Virus record (IMG/VR): IMGVR_UViG_2718217867_000004
Span: 1-40,589 of that record
Origin: a virus
Taxonomy: Duplodnaviria; Heunggongvirae; Uroviricota; Caudoviricetes
Direction: 5' to 3' (one strand)
DNA: 40,589 bases
The notes under the pieces were generated by a model. That model was not told where the DNA came from. It did no database searches and saw nothing but the letters and a program-made list of their open reading frames with translations. A program made the translations under genes and the position numbers. Positions 3,271 through 36,411 of the stretch are shown here, piece after piece. Position 1 is the stretch's first letter; each line of letters starts with the position of its first letter.

Positions 3271-4691
3271 GTGTTTCTCGCTGTGAAGGAAAGCGGCATG
3301 AACGCCGGATGGACGGGAGAGACCGCCTGTACCAGTTCGTCCGCACGCGAGGCGTCCTGATACAGCCGGTTTGCCAGCGCCAGCGACGGCTGCGGTGAGC
3401 GGCTGGTCACCTTCATCACGTCCTGTTGTGACAGATAATTCGTCTGCCAGTGGGTGACAAACTGCGTGTACTGCGCATTCAGCGCGTCATAACTGTCGTC
3501 ATCCGTACGGTCAGCCAGTAACAGCAGGACGGTTTCCGTCACCGTGCGGGCCTTCCGCATCACCAACACCGCGTCGTCGTGACCACGGGGGGAATACTGC
3601 ATCAGCCGCCACAGCATCGCTCCGGCCCCCAGTGTGCGGATAAGGGCCTGCACCGCCGCAGAGATGGCATTTGCCGCCTCCCCTTCGTAATACGTCCCGT
3701 CTTCCGCCGACGCAATCTCAGCCATGACGCGGATTTTCTCCGTGTCGCTGCCCGTGGCCTCCGCCAGAGTGATAATGACCGCCTGTATCGCGGACACGGC
3801 ACCGGACACGGATGTGATATCCTCCAGCACCGCTGTCGCCGACTCCGCCGCCGACCGGTCCTGCACGGAGCAGGCCTGAATGGTTTCCAGGATACTGTCA
3901 TCATCCGCATCCGTGGTGGCAAGCCACGTTGCAAGCGACGAGGCCGTGCTGCCCGACGGCGTATCACTGCCCCGACAGTAACGCCCGTAACTGTCAGGCG
4001 AATACAGGGATGACACCGTGCTGGTCATGCTGGTCACCGACGTCACCGCCCGCGAAAATATCGTCTTCCACGCGCTCACCGTGCTCTTTATCGTTTTTAC
4101 CGCGCCGGTGACACTGTTCATCTCACCGGTAATCGCCGCCAGCGTCACGGTGGCCGTTGTGGTCAGCGTCTGATACCACGTCTCCGATGACGTGGAGGTT
4201 GTCCCCGTCACCAGTGAAAACGCTTTTTCCCCTGACTCAATGACGGTCAGCGTGAACGAAAACACACGCCCGGACTCCACGCCCTCTTCAATACGCAGAC
4301 CTCCGTCCGGGACATACACCGTCATCTCACCCAGCGTCGGATGGACCAGCAGACCTCCGCCGGATGTTTCACAGGCCGCCACCAGGGCATCCCGCTGACT
4401 GAACACATCCCCCGCGCTGTACACCAGACTGTCCTGTATCAGGAACCCGCGCAGTGTGAACTTCCGGGCGCTGCGCCCCAGGTCTTCCACCCAGACCGTA
4501 TCGCGGTACGGGTATTCATGCACCGCCACCCGGCGACCATATACCCCCTCTCCGGCAATCACGCCAAACGGCACGCCACAAAATGACGCCTGGTGAATAT
4601 GCGACTGCCACTCCCACCCGCCGGAGGAAGACAGCCCCAGGGCGGATGACACCGCGTCTGTGATAATGCCCATCTTCTGCTCCTCACACAT
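3267..4691 (-). CDS. DNA circulation protein-like tail protein (Mu gp43-like)
   Basis: 474 aa ORF directly downstream of the tape measure gene; Ser/Thr-rich central region; gene order matches Mu N. Confidence 0.65.
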   Translation of the reverse strand: MCEEQKMGIITDAVSSALGLSSSGGWEWQSHIHQASFCGVPFGVIAGEGVYGRRVAVHEYPYRDTVWVEDLGRSARKFTLRGFLIQDSLVYSAGDVFSQRDALVAACETSGGGLLVHPTLGEMTVYVPDGGLRIEEGVESGRVFSFTLTVIESGEKAFSLVTGTTSTSSETWYQTLTTTATVTLAAITGEMNSVTGAVKTIKSTVSAWKTIFSRAVTSVTSMTSTVSSLYSPDSYGRYCRGSDTPSGSTASSLATWLATTDADDDSILETIQACSVQDRSAAESATAVLEDITSVSGAVSAIQAVIITLAEATGSDTEKIRVMAEIASAEDGTYYEGEAANAISAAVQALIRTLGAGAMLWRLMQYSPRGHDDAVLVMRKARTVTETVLLLLADRTDDDSYDALNAQYTQFVTHWQTNYLSQQDVMKVTSRSPQPSLALANRLYQDASRADELVQAVSPVHPAFMPLSFTARNT

Positions 4692-8966: not shown

Positions 8967-9199
8967 GCATCACCCCCTTTCGCCGTGCTGGCAGACGTGC
9001 TGCCTGTTGCTGTCGTGGACGCGGTCACTTTGCCGGTGGCTGCCGTGGTGGCCCTGTCAGCCAGTACCACATCCCCCTGCTTCAGGCGGCGTCGCCAGAA
9101 CAAATCACGATCCGGCACCTCCGCCCCCTCATCAGGCAGCAGACGTGACGGGTCGCCGGGGTAGCGCACCCTGCGCCCCGGTACAGGTTTCACAAACAT
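8963..9199 (-). CDS. Small virion-associated protein (DUF2635-like), hypothetical
   Basis: Start placed at an ATG with an AGGAG SD 7 nt upstream, after the stop of the upstream gene; Thr/Ala-rich C-terminus. Confidence 0.45.
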   Translation of the reverse strand: MFVKPVPGRRVRYPGDPSRLLPDEGAEVPDRDLFWRRRLKQGDVVLADRATTAATGKVTASTTATGSTSASTAKGGDA

Positions 9200-22032: not shown

Positions 22033-22107
<75 letters not shown>

Positions 22108-22110
22108 CAT

Positions 22111-22186
<76 letters not shown>

Positions 22187-22352
22187 CATTGGTTCCTCAG
22201 GTGTGGATGAGATGCCCGGATACATAAATTACCCTCCCTTGGAACCGACGAAGAATAATAATGAATTCCGCTCCTGTTTCAATACAAACAATGTCAGGTA
22301 TTTAAAACATAATTATACAATATTATAAAAATTAAAAAGTTCGCAAAAAAAG

Positions 22353-27678: not shown

Positions 27679-27834
27679 TTACTCCTCAGGTTCGTAAGCT
27701 GTGAAGACAGCGACCTCCGTCTGGCCGGTTCGGATTCGTACCTCGCAGAGGTCTTTCCTCGTTACCAGTGCCGTCACTATGACGGTTAAACAGATGACGA
27801 TCAGGGCGATTAACATCGCCTTTTGCTGCTTCAT
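27679..27834 (-). CDS. hokD: Hok/Gef family type I toxin (HokD/RelF-like)
   Basis: 51 aa MKQQKAMLIALIVICLTVIVTALVTRKDLCEVRIRTGQTEVAVFTAYEPEE: single TM helix plus the conserved Hok motif; matches the HokD sequence as I recall it. Confidence 0.9.
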   Translation of the reverse strand: MKQQKAMLIALIVICLTVIVTALVTRKDLCEVRIRTGQTEVAVFTAYEPEE

Positions 27835-27892
27835 AGCCTGCTTCTCCTTGCCTTTCGGCACGTAAGAGGCTAATCTTCAGTTGTCGAGACAT
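27686..27892 (-). CDS. mok-like overlapping reading frame (modulator of killing)
   Basis: 68-codon ORF starting upstream of hok and overlapping it in another frame, as in hok/mok/sok loci. Confidence 0.45.
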   Translation of the reverse strand: MSRQLKISLLRAERQGEAGYEAAKGDVNRPDRHLFNRHSDGTGNEERPLRGTNPNRPDGGRCLHSLRT

Positions 27893-28264
27893 AAGACTGG
27901 CCTCACTTCGATTTATAGTCGGGTGGGGCTTTTCTCTATCTGCCGTTGGTGTTCATGCCCGAGGCAGATAGCCTCAAGCACCCGCAGCAATTCTACTTAA
28001 CTCCCATCACCTCGCCAATATGAAATCAATCAGAAAGGTGATCCATGAGAACAATAACAAGACAATAAATTGCCATTACAGCCACAATAGCCAGCGCGCA
28101 TTTCAGAACCAGCACGATAACCTCCCACATTTAGCGTGCACGTGCATGATAAATATGTGTCCGTGTTATCACAGCAGCAATAGAAGATAAGATTTCGTTA
28201 TGTCGATATTTAACTCTGTGCGTTAAGCGCCCTGCTTATGTACACAAGGCGCGTTCTTAATGCC

Positions 28265-33845: not shown

Positions 33846-34057
33846 GAATCATTCTTTCCTTCGTTCGAGGTGTTATCCTGCTTCTTGTAAAGTTCTGGAT
33901 TGTATTTCAATTCACCGTTAGTAATTTCATCCAGCTCCATTGCGCGAAGTTTGGGAATAACTGCTTTCCACCGCACAACAGCCACATGTGAAATTCCAAG
34001 AGCCTCAGCTACTAGTCGCTTTTTTTTGAAATAGCGCAGAACATCATCTTTGAACAT
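33842..34057 (-). CDS. Cro-like HTH regulator (YdaS/Cro family)
   Basis: 71 aa with HTH KKKRLVAEALGISHVAVVRWK; divergent from cI across an operator-bearing gap; ATGA overlap with the YdaT-like gene. Confidence 0.8.
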   Translation of the reverse strand: MFKDDVLRYFKKKRLVAEALGISHVAVVRWKAVIPKLRAMELDEITNGELKYNPELYKKQDNTSNEGKNDS

Positions 34058-34085
34058 AAAACTCTCCTGTTATTTCGAACAAGAG

Positions 34086-34150
34086 GGTAACAATAGTTAC
34101 ATAATGATGTCAACCATAGTAACATTACTTGGTAGTAACATTGGTTACAT
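34086..34150. promoter_or_regulatory. OR-like operator cluster between cro and cI
   Basis: Three sites with inverted GTAAC/GTTAC half-sites (GGTAACAATAGTTAC, GTAACATTACTTGG, GTAACATTGGTTAC) in the divergent promoter region. Confidence 0.6.
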
Positions 34151-34823
34151 GAAAAACACTATCAGCGAACGTATTCGGAATCGTCGAAAAGACGTTGGAC
34201 TAACTCAACAGCAGGTTGCGAAAGCAATCGGCATATCTCGCGTATCCGTAACAAAATGGGAAAATGGCTCTTCAAAACCTGACGGTGAGAATTTGCATCT
34301 GCTGTCAAAATTGCTTTCCAAATCTCCTGAATGGATTCTTTATGGAAAGGATGGTCACGATAAAACCGACGATCTGCGTCTGAATCAGCACCTTTACATT
34401 AGTGACAACATCGCCCGGTTGCCCGTTTTAACGTGGGAACAGGCTGGTTATTGGGATATGAGTTGCCCAGTAACCGAGATTCCTGGTATTAAGAATTGGG
34501 TTGATGTCATGACAAAAACCGCTGAAAACTCTTTTTTATTGCGCGTTGAGGGAGATGCGATGACGAACTCTAACGGCCTCCCAACCATCCCCGACGGATC
34601 TACCGTGCTGATCACTCCATGCTCAAGTAACATTAGAGAACTGGTGGGAAAAATAATCTTAATCCAATTGGAAGGAACGCCGAACGTAACACTAAAAAAA
34701 GTTGCGATTGACGGACCAAACATCTATCTGCTGTCACTGAATCCGCTTTACAAACCCATTGAACTGAATGGTGGTTACACTATTAAAGGTAAAGTTTCAC
34801 AAATACATCAATATTTAGACTGA
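34149..34823 (+). CDS. cI-like repressor (N-terminal HTH, C-terminal S24 LexA-like peptidase domain)
   Basis: HTH (LTQQQVAKAIGISRVSVTKWENG) and S24 autocleavage domain (VEGDAMT...KGK); start chosen at MKNTIS just after the operators; the track ORF begins at 34050. Confidence 0.85.
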   Translation: MKNTISERIRNRRKDVGLTQQQVAKAIGISRVSVTKWENGSSKPDGENLHLLSKLLSKSPEWILYGKDGHDKTDDLRLNQHLYISDNIARLPVLTWEQAGYWDMSCPVTEIPGIKNWVDVMTKTAENSFLLRVEGDAMTNSNGLPTIPDGSTVLITPCSSNIRELVGKIILIQLEGTPNVTLKKVAIDGPNIYLLSLNPLYKPIELNGGYTIKGKVSQIHQYLD

Positions 34824-34915: not shown

Positions 34916-35095
34916 GACAACATACCAACCCACCCCGCCCCACAGAACGCCGGGCAATACTTCGAGTTACCAGGCAGGTGATCAGGGGTCAATGTAGCCA
35001 GCCCGAGGCATTCGAAAGTGACGGCAGGGTTCAACTTTTAACTATGCAGCAGGTTTTTGTTCCGCTACCCCGGCGATAAGGGGAAATGAGGTCAA

Positions 35096-35248
35096 CATGG
35101 AAACTATCGATCTTGGCAACAACGAATCTCTGGTGTGCGGCGTGTTTCCCAACCAGGACGGAACGTTCACGGCGATGACGTATACAAAAAGCAAAACGTT
35201 TAAAACCGAATCTGGCGCGCGTCGTTGGTTGGTAAGACATTCAGGTGA
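35096..35248 (+). CDS. Small protein, YdfA-like (50 aa)
   Basis: METIDLGNNESLVCGVFPNQDGTFTAMTYTKSKTFKTESGARSLVGKTFR with a GAGG SD; position and size match ydfA of the Qin dicB operon; below the track cutoff. Confidence 0.45.
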
Positions 35249-35253
35249 ATAAA

Positions 35254-35400
35254 ATGAACGAAACAGAATTAAAACACGTTATCGCTCTGCTTCTGGAGGA
35301 TGCAAAACGCCTCCAGCAACTGGAACCAAATGCAGGCACTGAAGCCCGCATCTGGCTGGCATTGCACGCTATTGAGTCAGGTCGTGATGATGAAGGTTAA
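35254..35400 (+). CDS. Small protein, YdfB-like (48 aa)
   Basis: MNETELKHVIALLLEDAKRLQQLEPNAGTEARIWLALHAIESGRDDEG with an AGGTGA SD 5 nt upstream. Confidence 0.45.
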   Translation: MNETELKHVIALLLEDAKRLQQLEPNAGTEARIWLALHAIESGRDDEG

Positions 35401-35598
35401 GCATCATCTAAGTTTTTTACATAGCGCCCATTAGATTCGGTAACAAGAACTCCGGGATTTTTCTTAACTTTTGAGGCCACTGATTCAGCAAGGTCAGCAA
35501 CAGATTCTTTGTCTTCATTCTTGCTTGAATATATATATTCGGCATTAGGAAGACGGTAGGTGTTCCCTAAAGAGGTTGTAATCGTTCTGGAGAATCCC

Positions 35599-35760
35599 AT
35601 GAAGCTTATCGTAATCAGCGGAACTGGAATCGCGAAGTTCGATCCTGACTGTAAATTTTGCCATTTTATCCTCCATTTAGGTTCTGGGTTAGAAATGGAG
35701 ACCAATACGGGGCTACGTGTGGTCGTGCGCCGGACACGGATAAGAATCCGGCACTGACAG
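35599..35760 (+). CDS. Small hypothetical protein (53 aa), possible ydfC-position gene
   Basis: ATG with a GGAG SD 6 nt upstream, on the operon strand; an antisense 67-aa ORF (35397-35600) competes for the adjacent AT-rich segment. Confidence 0.3.
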
Positions 35761-36000
35761 TTTACTGAAAGGATATATCCCTGAAAAGTCAGGGCATAAC
35801 ACGAAAGCGTACGGCGAAGGCCTTCACCTATGAGGTTTGTCGTTAAATTACTTCGACCGTGCGCTTCCGGTTGTGGCAATCCGCGAAATGGCGCGGCGGT
35901 AAGTATGGCGGGGTTATTCCTTCCCCCGTTGAGGACACCGGGTTGTCAGGTTGACCATACGCTTAAGTGACAACCTCGCTGCAACGCCCTCTGTTATCAA

Positions 36001-36058
36001 TTTTCTGGTGACGTTTGGCGGTATCAGTTTTACTCCGTGACTGCTCTGCCGCCCTTTT
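36001..36058 (+). ncRNA. dicF: DicF small RNA
   Basis: TTTCTGGTGACGTTTGGCGGTATCAGTTTTACTCCGTGACTGCTCTGCCGCCCTTTTT matches the DicF sequence as I recall it, with its intrinsic terminator; lies upstream of dicB. Confidence 0.85.
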
Positions 36059-36228
36059 TAAAGTGAATTTTGTGATGTGGTGAATGCGGCTAAGCGCACG
36101 CGGAACAGTTAAAACCAAAAACAGTGTTATGGGTGGATTCTCTGTATCCGGCGTTAATTGTTAACTGGTTAACGTCACCTGGAGGCACCAGGCACCGCAT
36201 CACAAAATTCATTGTTGAGGACGCGATA

Positions 36229-36411
36229 ATGGAAACGTTATTACCAAACGTTAATACGTCTGAAGGTTGTTTTGAAATTGGTGTCAGAATCAGTAACCCT
36301 GTATTTACTGAAGATGCCATTAATAAGAGAAAACACGAACGGGAGTTATTAAATAAAATATGCATTGTTTCAATGCTGGCCCGTTTACGCCTGATGCAAA
36401 AAGGACGCTGA
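36229..36411 (+). CDS. dicB: Cell division inhibitor DicB
   Basis: 60 aa METLLPNVNTSEGCFEIGVRISNPVFTEDAINKRKHERELLNKICIVSMLARLRLMQKGR; GAGGA SD; closely matches DicB as I recall it. Confidence 0.85.
   Translation: METLLPNVNTSEGCFEIGVRISNPVFTEDAINKRKHERELLNKICIVSMLARLRLMQKGR

Follow-up and report, generated by a model that had tools for sequence, protein, structure and literature searches.

The window analysed here is the whole 40,589-nt stretch (40.6 kb) of the IMG/VR record IMGVR_UViG_2718217867_000004, which is identical in sequence to the Escherichia coli PapM-36-2 chromosome (NZ_CP050646.1) and constitutes a Qin/Rac-like lambdoid prophage of that strain. Our subject is the immunity and early-left part of this prophage, where a cI-like repressor is followed by a ydfA-like gene, a remnant of ydfB, the DicF small RNA (sRNA), and dicB, after which come a DUF1482 gene and an exonuclease gene (Table 1). 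Between the ydfB remnant and DicF lies the segment at issue, and in its 3′ portion we find a conserved, structured RNA domain that is the 5′ part of the long, 190-nt DicF species.

By blastn, homology to the Qin prophage of E. coli K-12 covers window positions 35059-35256 (ydfA) and resumes at 35724, which corresponds to K-12 position 1649102 and lies 61 nt past the ydfC stop. From there onward, window 35724-36299 and K-12 1649102-1649679 match at 93.8%, and no blastn match to K-12 ydfB-3′/ydfC was found for 35257-35723. By this alignment, 35257-35723 is DNA that was replaced relative to Qin, standing in place of ydfB-3′/ydfC. A sequence-only reading of the stretch had proposed inserted DNA of this kind, along with a structured dicF precursor, and both proposals hold. 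The K-12 homology breaks between 35256 and 35724, and no colinear, intact ydfC came to light in the alignment with Qin; moreover, the structured segment is colinear with the K-12 DNA just 5′ of dicF. The same reading had further suggested a ydfC-equivalent region, but 35724-36002 aligns instead to the K-12 ydfC-dicF intergenic DNA. This portion serves the early-left (dicBp) operon as its untranslated leader, the locus contains no ydfC, and its annotation is corrected here to one frameshifted cargo gene plus two spurious open reading frames (ORFs).

Table 1. Features of the locus, with window coordinates. Labels such as L002 denote related loci. SD, Shine-Dalgarno sequence; PGAP, Prokaryotic Genome Annotation Pipeline.
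Feature	Position	Strand	Evidence or remark
cI-like repressor, LexA family	34050-34823	+	
ydfA-like gene (DUF1391), first gene of early-left (dicBp/pL-type) operon	35097-35252	+	Pfam DUF1391, 99.9 bits; PGAP WP_000447543.1
ydfB-like remnant	35254-35400	+	PGAP: 35254-35379, pseudogene without C-terminus; Qin homology ends at 35256 (blastn against K-12)
GhoS/YmfI-like (DUF2622) cargo pseudogene	35397-35664	-	Alignment with intact 94-aa WP_001051723.1 of L002/L003
52-aa ORF antisense to cargo gene, judged spurious	35599-35757	+	ATG at 35599; GGAG ~8 nt upstream
Shared translation-start block (SD, ATG, 5′ leader) of minus-strand cargo slot	35657-35723	-	Window 35657-36300 homologous to L004 3650-4291
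Two lineage-specific leader hairpins	35729-35752 (GCCGGA/TCCGGC); 35779-35794 (CCCTGA/TCAGGG)	+	Inspection and folding; weak support
Processing stem D0:U1, ~22 bp	D0 35795-35816 (CATAACACGAAAGCGTACGGCG); U1 35854-35877 (CGACCGTGCGCTTCCGGTTGTGGC)	+	Putative RNase III substrate
Conserved structured RNA domain, ~116 nt, four-way junction with pseudoknot	35870-35985	+	Alignments A3/A4, model R1, pair counts
P1, closing helix, 8 bp	35870-77/35978-85	+	
P2, hairpin, 5 bp	35881-85/35892-96	+	
P3, 4 bp	35897-900/35937-40	+	Forms one arm with P4
Pseudoknot PK, 6 bp	35903-08 (GUAUGG)/35955-60 (CCAUAC)	+	5′ side of P3/P4 internal loop with P5 loop
P4, 5 bp	35909-13/35924-28	+	
P5, 8 bp	35941-48/35968-75	+	
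P5b, 3 bp	35949-51/35961-63	+	Continues P5 arm
Single-stranded AU-rich linker	35986-36002	+	RNase E cut making DicF 5′ end at its 3′ edge (RF00039 position; published dependence)
DicF sRNA with intrinsic terminator	36003-36059	+	Rfam RF00039; hairpin -15.9 kcal/mol; U-run to 36059
STnc100-like long hairpin between DicF and dicB	36052-36261; arms 36063-36082/36193-36212	+	RF02076, 37.7 bits, gathering score 47, sub-threshold
dicB	36229-36411		Position 3′ of DicF

Fold, spread, and downstream partners of the RNA domain

The sequence-only reading had described the leader as rich in hairpins, and all three that it named are present, at 35729-35752, 35779-35794, and 35941-35975. In the K-12 copies, the first two carry uncompensated mismatches. 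The third (GGTTGTCA/TGACAACC), however, is one arm of a conserved, covarying, and pseudoknotted four-way-junction RNA that the earlier reading had missed, and we regard the identity and structure of this domain as near-certain. Across five mosaic contexts, 35866-35990 is almost invariant, with flanks that are either 89-95% identical or unrelated. The fold was obtained with RNAalifold plus inspection from 34 non-redundant representatives (alignment A3), and the covariance model R1 finds exactly one copy per true locus, at 91-167 bits, with the single copy in the whole 40.6 kb of the window scoring 163 bits; none was found in the whole HK022 genome or in chance pattern matches. In the model-fitted alignment, 95.8% of the cells are paired and 14 pairs have changed on both sides, the corresponding values for the unfitted MAFFT alignment being 94.6% and 12. 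None of 500 shuffles reached any of these measures with either alignment, and slid controls were 30-53% paired (31-53% with the model-fitted alignment). Support from covariation is strong for helices P1, P4, and P5, and compensatory changes include those in P5 of Izhakiella (GGGTAACCA/TGGTTACCC), P4 of L039 (CAGGTG/CACCTG), P3 of phage P7 (CGGC/GCCG), and the pseudoknot of phage P1 (GCAUGG/CCAUGC). Moreover, the minimum free energy (MFE) structure of the isolated domain yields the same junction.

Against dinucleotide shuffles, the plus strand gave folding z-scores of -3.5 (35700-36060) and -3.9 (35720-35880), and the minus strand gave -3.1; as both strands fold better than shuffles, single-sequence folding cannot pick the strand. 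G-U pairs do so when taken together with the covariation. In P5b, for example, one pair is U-G in 42 of the 42 sequences and another is G-U in 26 of them, and the abundance of such pairs marks the plus strand as the functional one, which is also the strand of the dicBF transcript. Here, a 1-nt indel and the variable lengths of the P4 loop break every ORF in the domain, which is therefore not coding.

No Rfam 15 family matched the domain by cmscan, either in the window (E<=10) or in its homologs from L152, L154, L148, and L006 (E<=0.1). The covariance-model scan that the sequence-only reading had called for gave DicF (RF00039 at 36003-36054, 76.7 bits against a gathering score of 48), a match that concerns DicF and not the structured segment, and no family on the domain upstream. 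In all, the scans of the window and these four distant loci returned only DicF, a sub-threshold STnc100, C4, isrK, STnc150, and tRNAs elsewhere. A tRNA-like identity was rejected, with ARAGORN calling none in five related loci and the only Rfam tRNA match in the window being at 22037-22187. Also set aside were a kissing interaction between loops L2 and L5, which is not conserved, relatives having AACGG or ACAGG as their L2, and use of the L5 loop as an antisense seed (reverse complement AUGGUCAACC), its CCAUAC being engaged by the pseudoknot. In the literature searched, which did not extend to Faubladier and Bouché (1994) or to the paper on the P1 genome, we found no description of the 5′ domain of the 190-nt RNA as a conserved structure. 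Nor did we find there any account of how the domain folds and covaries, of its pseudoknot and processing stem, of its independence from DicF, or of its occurrence in phage P1 and other genera.

A 125-nt core of the domain has a match in 4,314 of the 5,426 complete E. coli genomes (~80%), at 8,967 places and up to eight times per genome, and among the matches listed no annotated feature lies under the core. About 500 P1-like plasmids and 61 phage records carry the domain too, and it matches the viable phages mEp460, Evi, Tritos, cdtI, Stx2c phages, Ayreon, 2H10, and Salmonella F1055 as well as P1/P7. Pattern scans recovered more than 120 viral contigs and also detected the domain in E. albertii, E. 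ruysiae, Shigella, Citrobacter, Trabulsiella, Erwinia tracheiphila, Izhakiella, and Serratia symbiotica. Its position is always 3′ of a cI-like repressor and on the same strand, or else directly after Pban of phage P1; in P1 and P7, it follows the C1-controlled ban promoter and overlaps a feature annotated as 'dicF-like region'. The domain is far commoner and more conserved than DicF itself. In Shigella flexneri and related loci (L018, L061, and L142), the 5′ flank including the P1 5′ strand has been replaced, apparently by recombination between CGCGAAA(T)GGCG of P2 and ACGCGAAAGCG of D0, with the rest of the domain intact. In a Citrobacter braakii prophage (L148) with the order repressor, domain, xis, and int, matches to C4 antisense RNA and isrK adjoin one another at 1630-1815 on the minus strand, both above their Rfam gathering scores.

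What follows the domain is less constant. Among 16 downstream sequence groups, 15 have a GC-rich hairpin and U-run within about 20-100 nt of it, and this hairpin may be the classical DicF, a DicF variant with other loops, or, in phage P1, a short unrelated terminator. Long terminator hairpins of -27 to -34 kcal/mol occur in Erwinia, Izhakiella, Trabulsiella, Serratia, and F1055, and the Rfam DicF model did not detect those of L152 and L154, the two that were scanned. The exception is L002/L003, where recombination exactly at the P1 3′ strand has swapped the DicF side and P1 still pairs. The conserved unit is best described as the domain plus a terminator hairpin, with the terminator exchangeable. 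Between the two, the linker is variable and no conserved antiterminator pairing was seen, and domain-terminator complementarity is present in most copies though not in those of phage P1. On a smaller scale, GGCGGTA occurs both at the P2/P3 boundary (35895-35901) and in the 5′ strand of the DicF terminator (36037-36043), and terminator 5′ strands of other variants likewise mimic segments of the domain. The motif resembles the RfaH ops element (GGCGGTAGnnTG) over the latter's first seven bases. Moreover, the hairpins at the DicF position in L150, L152, L154, L139, and L008 hold an internal SD-like GGAGG sequestered by CUUCC and then an AUG, and the reading frames after that AUG are not conserved.

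Relation to long DicF and a proposed processing route

Two DicF species, of 53 and 190 nt, were described by Ragunathan et al. (2023), confirming Faubladier et al. (1990). As reported in the 2023 paper, the 5′ end of the 190-nt species is RNase III-dependent and lies at +813/814 of the dicBp transcript, and that of the 53-nt species requires RNase E, on whose inactivation the 190-nt species accumulates (citing Faubladier 1990). The same paper reports that the terminated 53- and 190-nt species dominate in K-12, with a read-through ydfABC-dicF-dicB transcript going undetected (Ragunathan et al., 2023). Counting 190 nt back from the DicF 3′ end leads to window position ~35866. With the K-12 promoter read as TTGACC-17-TAATCT and the start near 1648438, +813/814 falls at window 35869/35870, that is, at the first nucleotide of P1. 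Since the published 190-nt 5′ end maps to this nucleotide, the domain is the 5′ part of long DicF.

Just upstream, D0 and U1 pair with duplex energies between -25 and -39 kcal/mol in most of 40 loci, as compared with about -21 ± 2.6 kcal/mol for shuffles, and come near the shuffle level in the 5′-replaced, Serratia, and P1/P7 variants. Here, the two strands change together between lineages, being GAAAGCGCACGG/CCGTGCGCTTC in the E. coli type and GATGAGAGCATT/AGTGCTCTCTTC in others, and the duplex would make a natural substrate for RNase III. The 5′ strand of P1 forms part of U1, so that D0:U1 and P1 cannot exist together. A boxA-like TGCTCTTT in U1 of some relatives was rejected as a Nus site, for it is a strand of the covarying 22-bp duplex and is absent in the E. 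coli type. In Erwinia, Izhakiella, and Salmonella-phage loci (L152 ~4400-4520, L154 ~2240-2360, and L008 ~2370-2486), the stem has within it two T-arm-like hairpins (GGCGGG..CCTGCC and GTCCG..CGGAC), each with the loop TTCAATT, and ARAGORN calls no tRNA there. After the terminator of L152 (4690-4780), L154 (2560-2640), and L007 (~2690-2800), complementarity to U1 is seen a third time, in ACACAACAGAAAAGAGCAT, and a U1-like copy comes next. Together, the two form another long hairpin and might also pair back to U1, which hints at further alternative structures in relatives outside E. coli.

For 5′-end sensing, RNase E needs an end that is unpaired and bears a monophosphate. During transcription, the P1 5′ strand can be held in the D0:U1 stem, and RNase III would cut this stem at the first P1 nucleotide, a cut that is published for K-12 and whose position we have mapped from the promoter match. 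The freed strand may then close P1, giving a compact domain with a fully base-paired 5′-monophosphate end. Such an end would deny RNase E its 5′-end entry and make the 190-nt RNA long-lived, so that the 53-nt Hfq-binding DicF would be released slowly, in a gated manner, at the AU-rich linker. By this scheme, the domain probably acts as a processing-triggered 5′ cap that gates RNase E, a role in which our confidence is roughly even. On the 3′ side of DicF, the STnc100-like inverted repeat probably forms an RNase III stem that gives the published 72-nt DicF 3′ end, and a similarly weak STnc100 match lies downstream in phage P1 (L006 3842-3961). In that phage and in P7, the domain begins about 15-35 nt after the predicted ban start site, and the primary transcript, which runs to a terminator of its own, measures about 180 nt; the unit of domain plus terminator arises by processing in lambdoid phages, whereas in P1 it arises by initiation. 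Taken as a package, a swapped and broken cargo module, a conserved leader domain, and gated release of DicF form the reading that we favour, and we do so with reasonable rather than high confidence.

Several points weigh against this interpretation. For the fold, covariation of P3 comes from one position in one distinct sequence (that of P7), covariation of the pseudoknot from one position in two distinct sequences (phage P1), and P2 is conserved without double changes. The placing of +813/814 depends on a start site derived from a promoter match and is good to a few nucleotides only, and the gating of RNase E by the 5′ domain is something we infer. When the full 189-nt RNA is folded, its MFE structure (-67.7 kcal/mol) pairs the domain with DicF, as against -62.8 kcal/mol for the modular fold without the pseudoknot, at a z-score of only -1.5. 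The P1 5′ strand is lacking in the three variants L018, L061, and L142, and the copies of phage P1 start with a 5′-triphosphate and have a different, weak closing helix. Moreover, a plain stabiliser needs no loops that are invariant across genera, and the domain is conserved beyond its DicF-type hairpins, which hints at a more specific function.

Among known systems, the nearest is the 190-nt DicF of K-12 Qin itself, which sits at the same locus with 93.8% homology, has its published RNase III 5′ end at the start of the domain and its RNase E site at the domain's end, and agrees in length with the domain plus DicF (about 186-190 nt). The difference is that its extra 137 nt have been treated in the literature as precursor sequence. 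Long duplexes that flank a structured RNA and are cut to free it are familiar from the RNase III stems of rRNA operons and T7 early RNAs, and a second long hairpin, the STnc100-like one, stands 3′ of DicF. In contrast to those stems, one strand here doubles as the 5′ strand of P1, and cleavage should therefore trigger refolding. The putL/putR elements of HK022 are likewise structured, protein-independent RNAs just 3′ of the early promoters in N-less lambdoid phages, with terminators lying downstream of them. However, a put element measures about 70 nt, comprises two stem-loops, and is present in two copies per genome, whereas each prophage has a single domain of about 116 nt; put makes the polymerase terminator-resistant via the beta′ zinc-binding domain, whereas termination after the domain is efficient in K-12. 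A relationship to put was rejected given the different fold and the lack of blastn similarity or of any R1 match in the whole HK022 genome. In architecture alone, SAM-I-type riboswitch aptamers resemble the domain in size, four-helix junction, loop-to-internal-loop pseudoknot, and an intrinsic terminator directly downstream, and differ from it in that the domain has no sequence or Rfam similarity to them, no identified ligand, and no conserved antiterminator, and lies inside a lambdoid operon. The Pas sRNAs (Zhu, Shabalina and Storz, 2026), located in the late region, are unrelated to the domain.

A broken cargo gene in the replaced segment

As the sequence-only reading had stated, the segment at 35400-35600 is low in GC (0.39-0.41 in 35400-35599, as against 0.52 just upstream), and 35800-35949 reaches 0.57-0.61; the dip is real but modest. 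The reading had further described competing small ORFs on both strands, and these exist, though not as genes. On the minus strand, the 67-aa ORF (35397-35600) has no SD before its ATG at 35600 and is the tail of a 160-aa ORF (35397-35879) with a TTG start. PGAP annotates it as a DUF2622 domain-containing protein, and it is the C-terminal piece of a split gene whose true start is the ATG at 35664-35662, preceded by an SD (GGAGG) at 35674-35670. The N-terminal piece is a 39-aa ORF in another frame (35545-35664, with its stop at 35545). Alignment with intact loci places a 17-bp deletion (CTTTGCTTCCATTCGTT) at 35597/35599 that shifts the frame, and this deletion explains both why the 67-aa ORF has no SD and how the artificial 160-aa ORF arose, which runs on upstream through non-coding DNA. 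The same event gave the plus-strand 52-aa ORF its good SD spacing, its GGAG being 8 nt before the ATG in the window and 25 nt from it in intact loci. This ORF is antisense to the cargo gene, has no Pfam or NCBIfam match, and is interrupted by indels in relatives. Hence no ORF within 35400-35760 is a working gene, and the deletion has inactivated the cargo gene in PapM-36-2.

An intact minus-strand counterpart of 94 aa (WP_001051723.1, beginning MAKFTVRIELRDSSSADYDKLHERMEAKGFSRTITTS) is found with the same replacement in E24377A, DS26-1, and a pigeon isolate, where PGAP names it GhoS. The cassette occurs in four of the 5,426 complete E. coli genomes and is broken only in PapM-36-2. Its likeness to the GhoS and YmfI families consists of the small size, the PGAP names, and weak profile matches, both under the curated cut-offs: 19.2 bits to Pfam GhoS (PF11080, cut-off 21) and 51 bits to NCBIfam YmfI_phage (NF051477, cut-off 140). 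The window fragments have no Pfam GhoS match, and a sequence search of the PDB with the intact protein gave none. Unlike the GhoS/GhoT type V system, there is no ghoT-like gene adjoining; the cargo gene ends at 35397, converging on ydfB, with no ORF following on its strand, and the gene is frameshifted here. It is thus better regarded as a remote, putative DUF2622/YmfI-like gene than as a demonstrated type V antitoxin.

In O157-type prophages, a different minus-strand gene of 61 aa (WP_001133046.1; L004 3472-3657) uses the same SD/ATG block (35657-35675), the coding sequence in L004 beginning at the equivalent of window 35664, and the presence of another gene on an identical start block identifies the position as a cargo slot. 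On the other side, a minus-strand DUF1883 gene substitutes for DicF in L002/L003; exchangeable, reverse-oriented cargo genes flank the leader. Elsewhere in the prophage, we noticed a full-length sok antitoxin RNA (27829-27983, minus strand; Rfam, 116.8 bits), implying a hok/sok module, and two adjoining minus-strand tRNA genes at 22037-22108 and 22115-22187.

Alternative readings and significance

Among the alternatives, one that we hold as a tentative possibility is that the domain is an autonomous RNA of a new class, namely, a ligand-, protein-, or polymerase-binding module that controls the terminator behind it, at the nutL/putL position as well as in the P1 ban leader. On this view, DicF and its many variant hairpins would serve the module as expression platform or terminator and would only secondarily have been exapted as trans-acting sRNAs.

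It seems unlikely that the domain is a cis regulator of elongation or termination that sits in the ban leader of P1 and, in N-less lambdoid phages, at the nutL/putL position, and whose folded state, by itself or with a ligand, protein, or RNA polymerase bound, decides between a stop at the terminator, which yields a DicF-type RNA, and read-through to dicB, kil, recombination, xis-int, or ban genes. Such a regulator would be expected in sense orientation between a repressor-controlled early promoter and the early genes, which is always the case, and it would suit the strong intrinsic terminator in 15 of the 16 groups, beyond which genes need read-through. Junction, pseudoknot, and invariant unpaired bases amount to an aptamer-grade architecture; moreover, segments of the domain recur in the 5′ strands of terminators (GGCGGTA; GGCGGGTATTC), and the full-length MFE structure pairs domain with terminator. 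However, the dominance of termination in K-12, with read-through undetected in the published work drawn on, speaks against a constitutive put-like antiterminator, and HK022 lacks both a blastn match and, genome-wide, a match to R1. The window has one copy in 40.6 kb, without the rightward-operon partner seen with putL/putR, and neither the P1 3′ strand nor the variable linker shows conserved antiterminator pairing with the terminator 5′ strand. Phage P1, for its part, has a terminator with no sequence in common with the domain.

Rather improbable, in our estimate, is a trans-acting domain that binds or titrates a conserved host protein or RNA, the hairpin being its terminator and only later exapted in E. 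coli as the ftsZ-targeting DicF. This would fit with the greater conservation of the domain, relative to the 3′ hairpins, among E. coli, Erwinia, Izhakiella, Serratia, and P1, with its outliving the recombination that removed DicF (L002/L003), and with a dedicated, covarying RNase III stem at its flank, like that of a stable RNA. RNase E cleavage is also expected to leave a 5′ fragment of ~135 nt, and published probes were aimed at DicF only. Still, no partner is known, accumulation of a free 5′ fragment is unreported, the most conserved loop bases are already explained by the pseudoknot, and there is neither Rfam nor literature precedent. Finally, a protein-coding segment (a ydfC equivalent or the 46-aa ORF at 35830-35970) or a minus-strand cargo promoter/5′ untranslated region with incidental hairpins is highly improbable: there are ORFs on both strands, the minus strand folds better than shuffles, and the block at 35657-35723 does act as SD/start for minus-strand cargo genes, but homology to ydfC is lacking, the 46-aa ORF has no Pfam/NCBIfam match and is broken by a 1-nt indel in K-12/O157 and by loop lengths elsewhere, the G-U pairs would become A-C on the minus strand, a consensus scan and our own reading found no sigma-70-like minus-strand promoter in 35665-36000, and no minus-strand cargo gene accompanies the element in K-12, P1, and Citrobacter.

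Our preferred reading remains that of a conserved leader domain, freed by RNase III behind a broken cargo module, through which the release of DicF would be gated. Here, the 190-nt species was already known, and what is new is that the 5′ part of this known precursor is a distinct and widespread structured RNA module without an Rfam family. DicF is among the oldest known bacterial sRNAs, and the 137 nt before it have until now been treated as disposable precursor. Together with its exchangeable terminator hairpin, the domain makes up a modular phage RNA gene that heads the early-left operon. This offers testable hypotheses on the timing of DicF release, on the way in which transcription gets beyond a strong terminator to dicB and other early genes, and on why DicF-like sequences abound in prophages.

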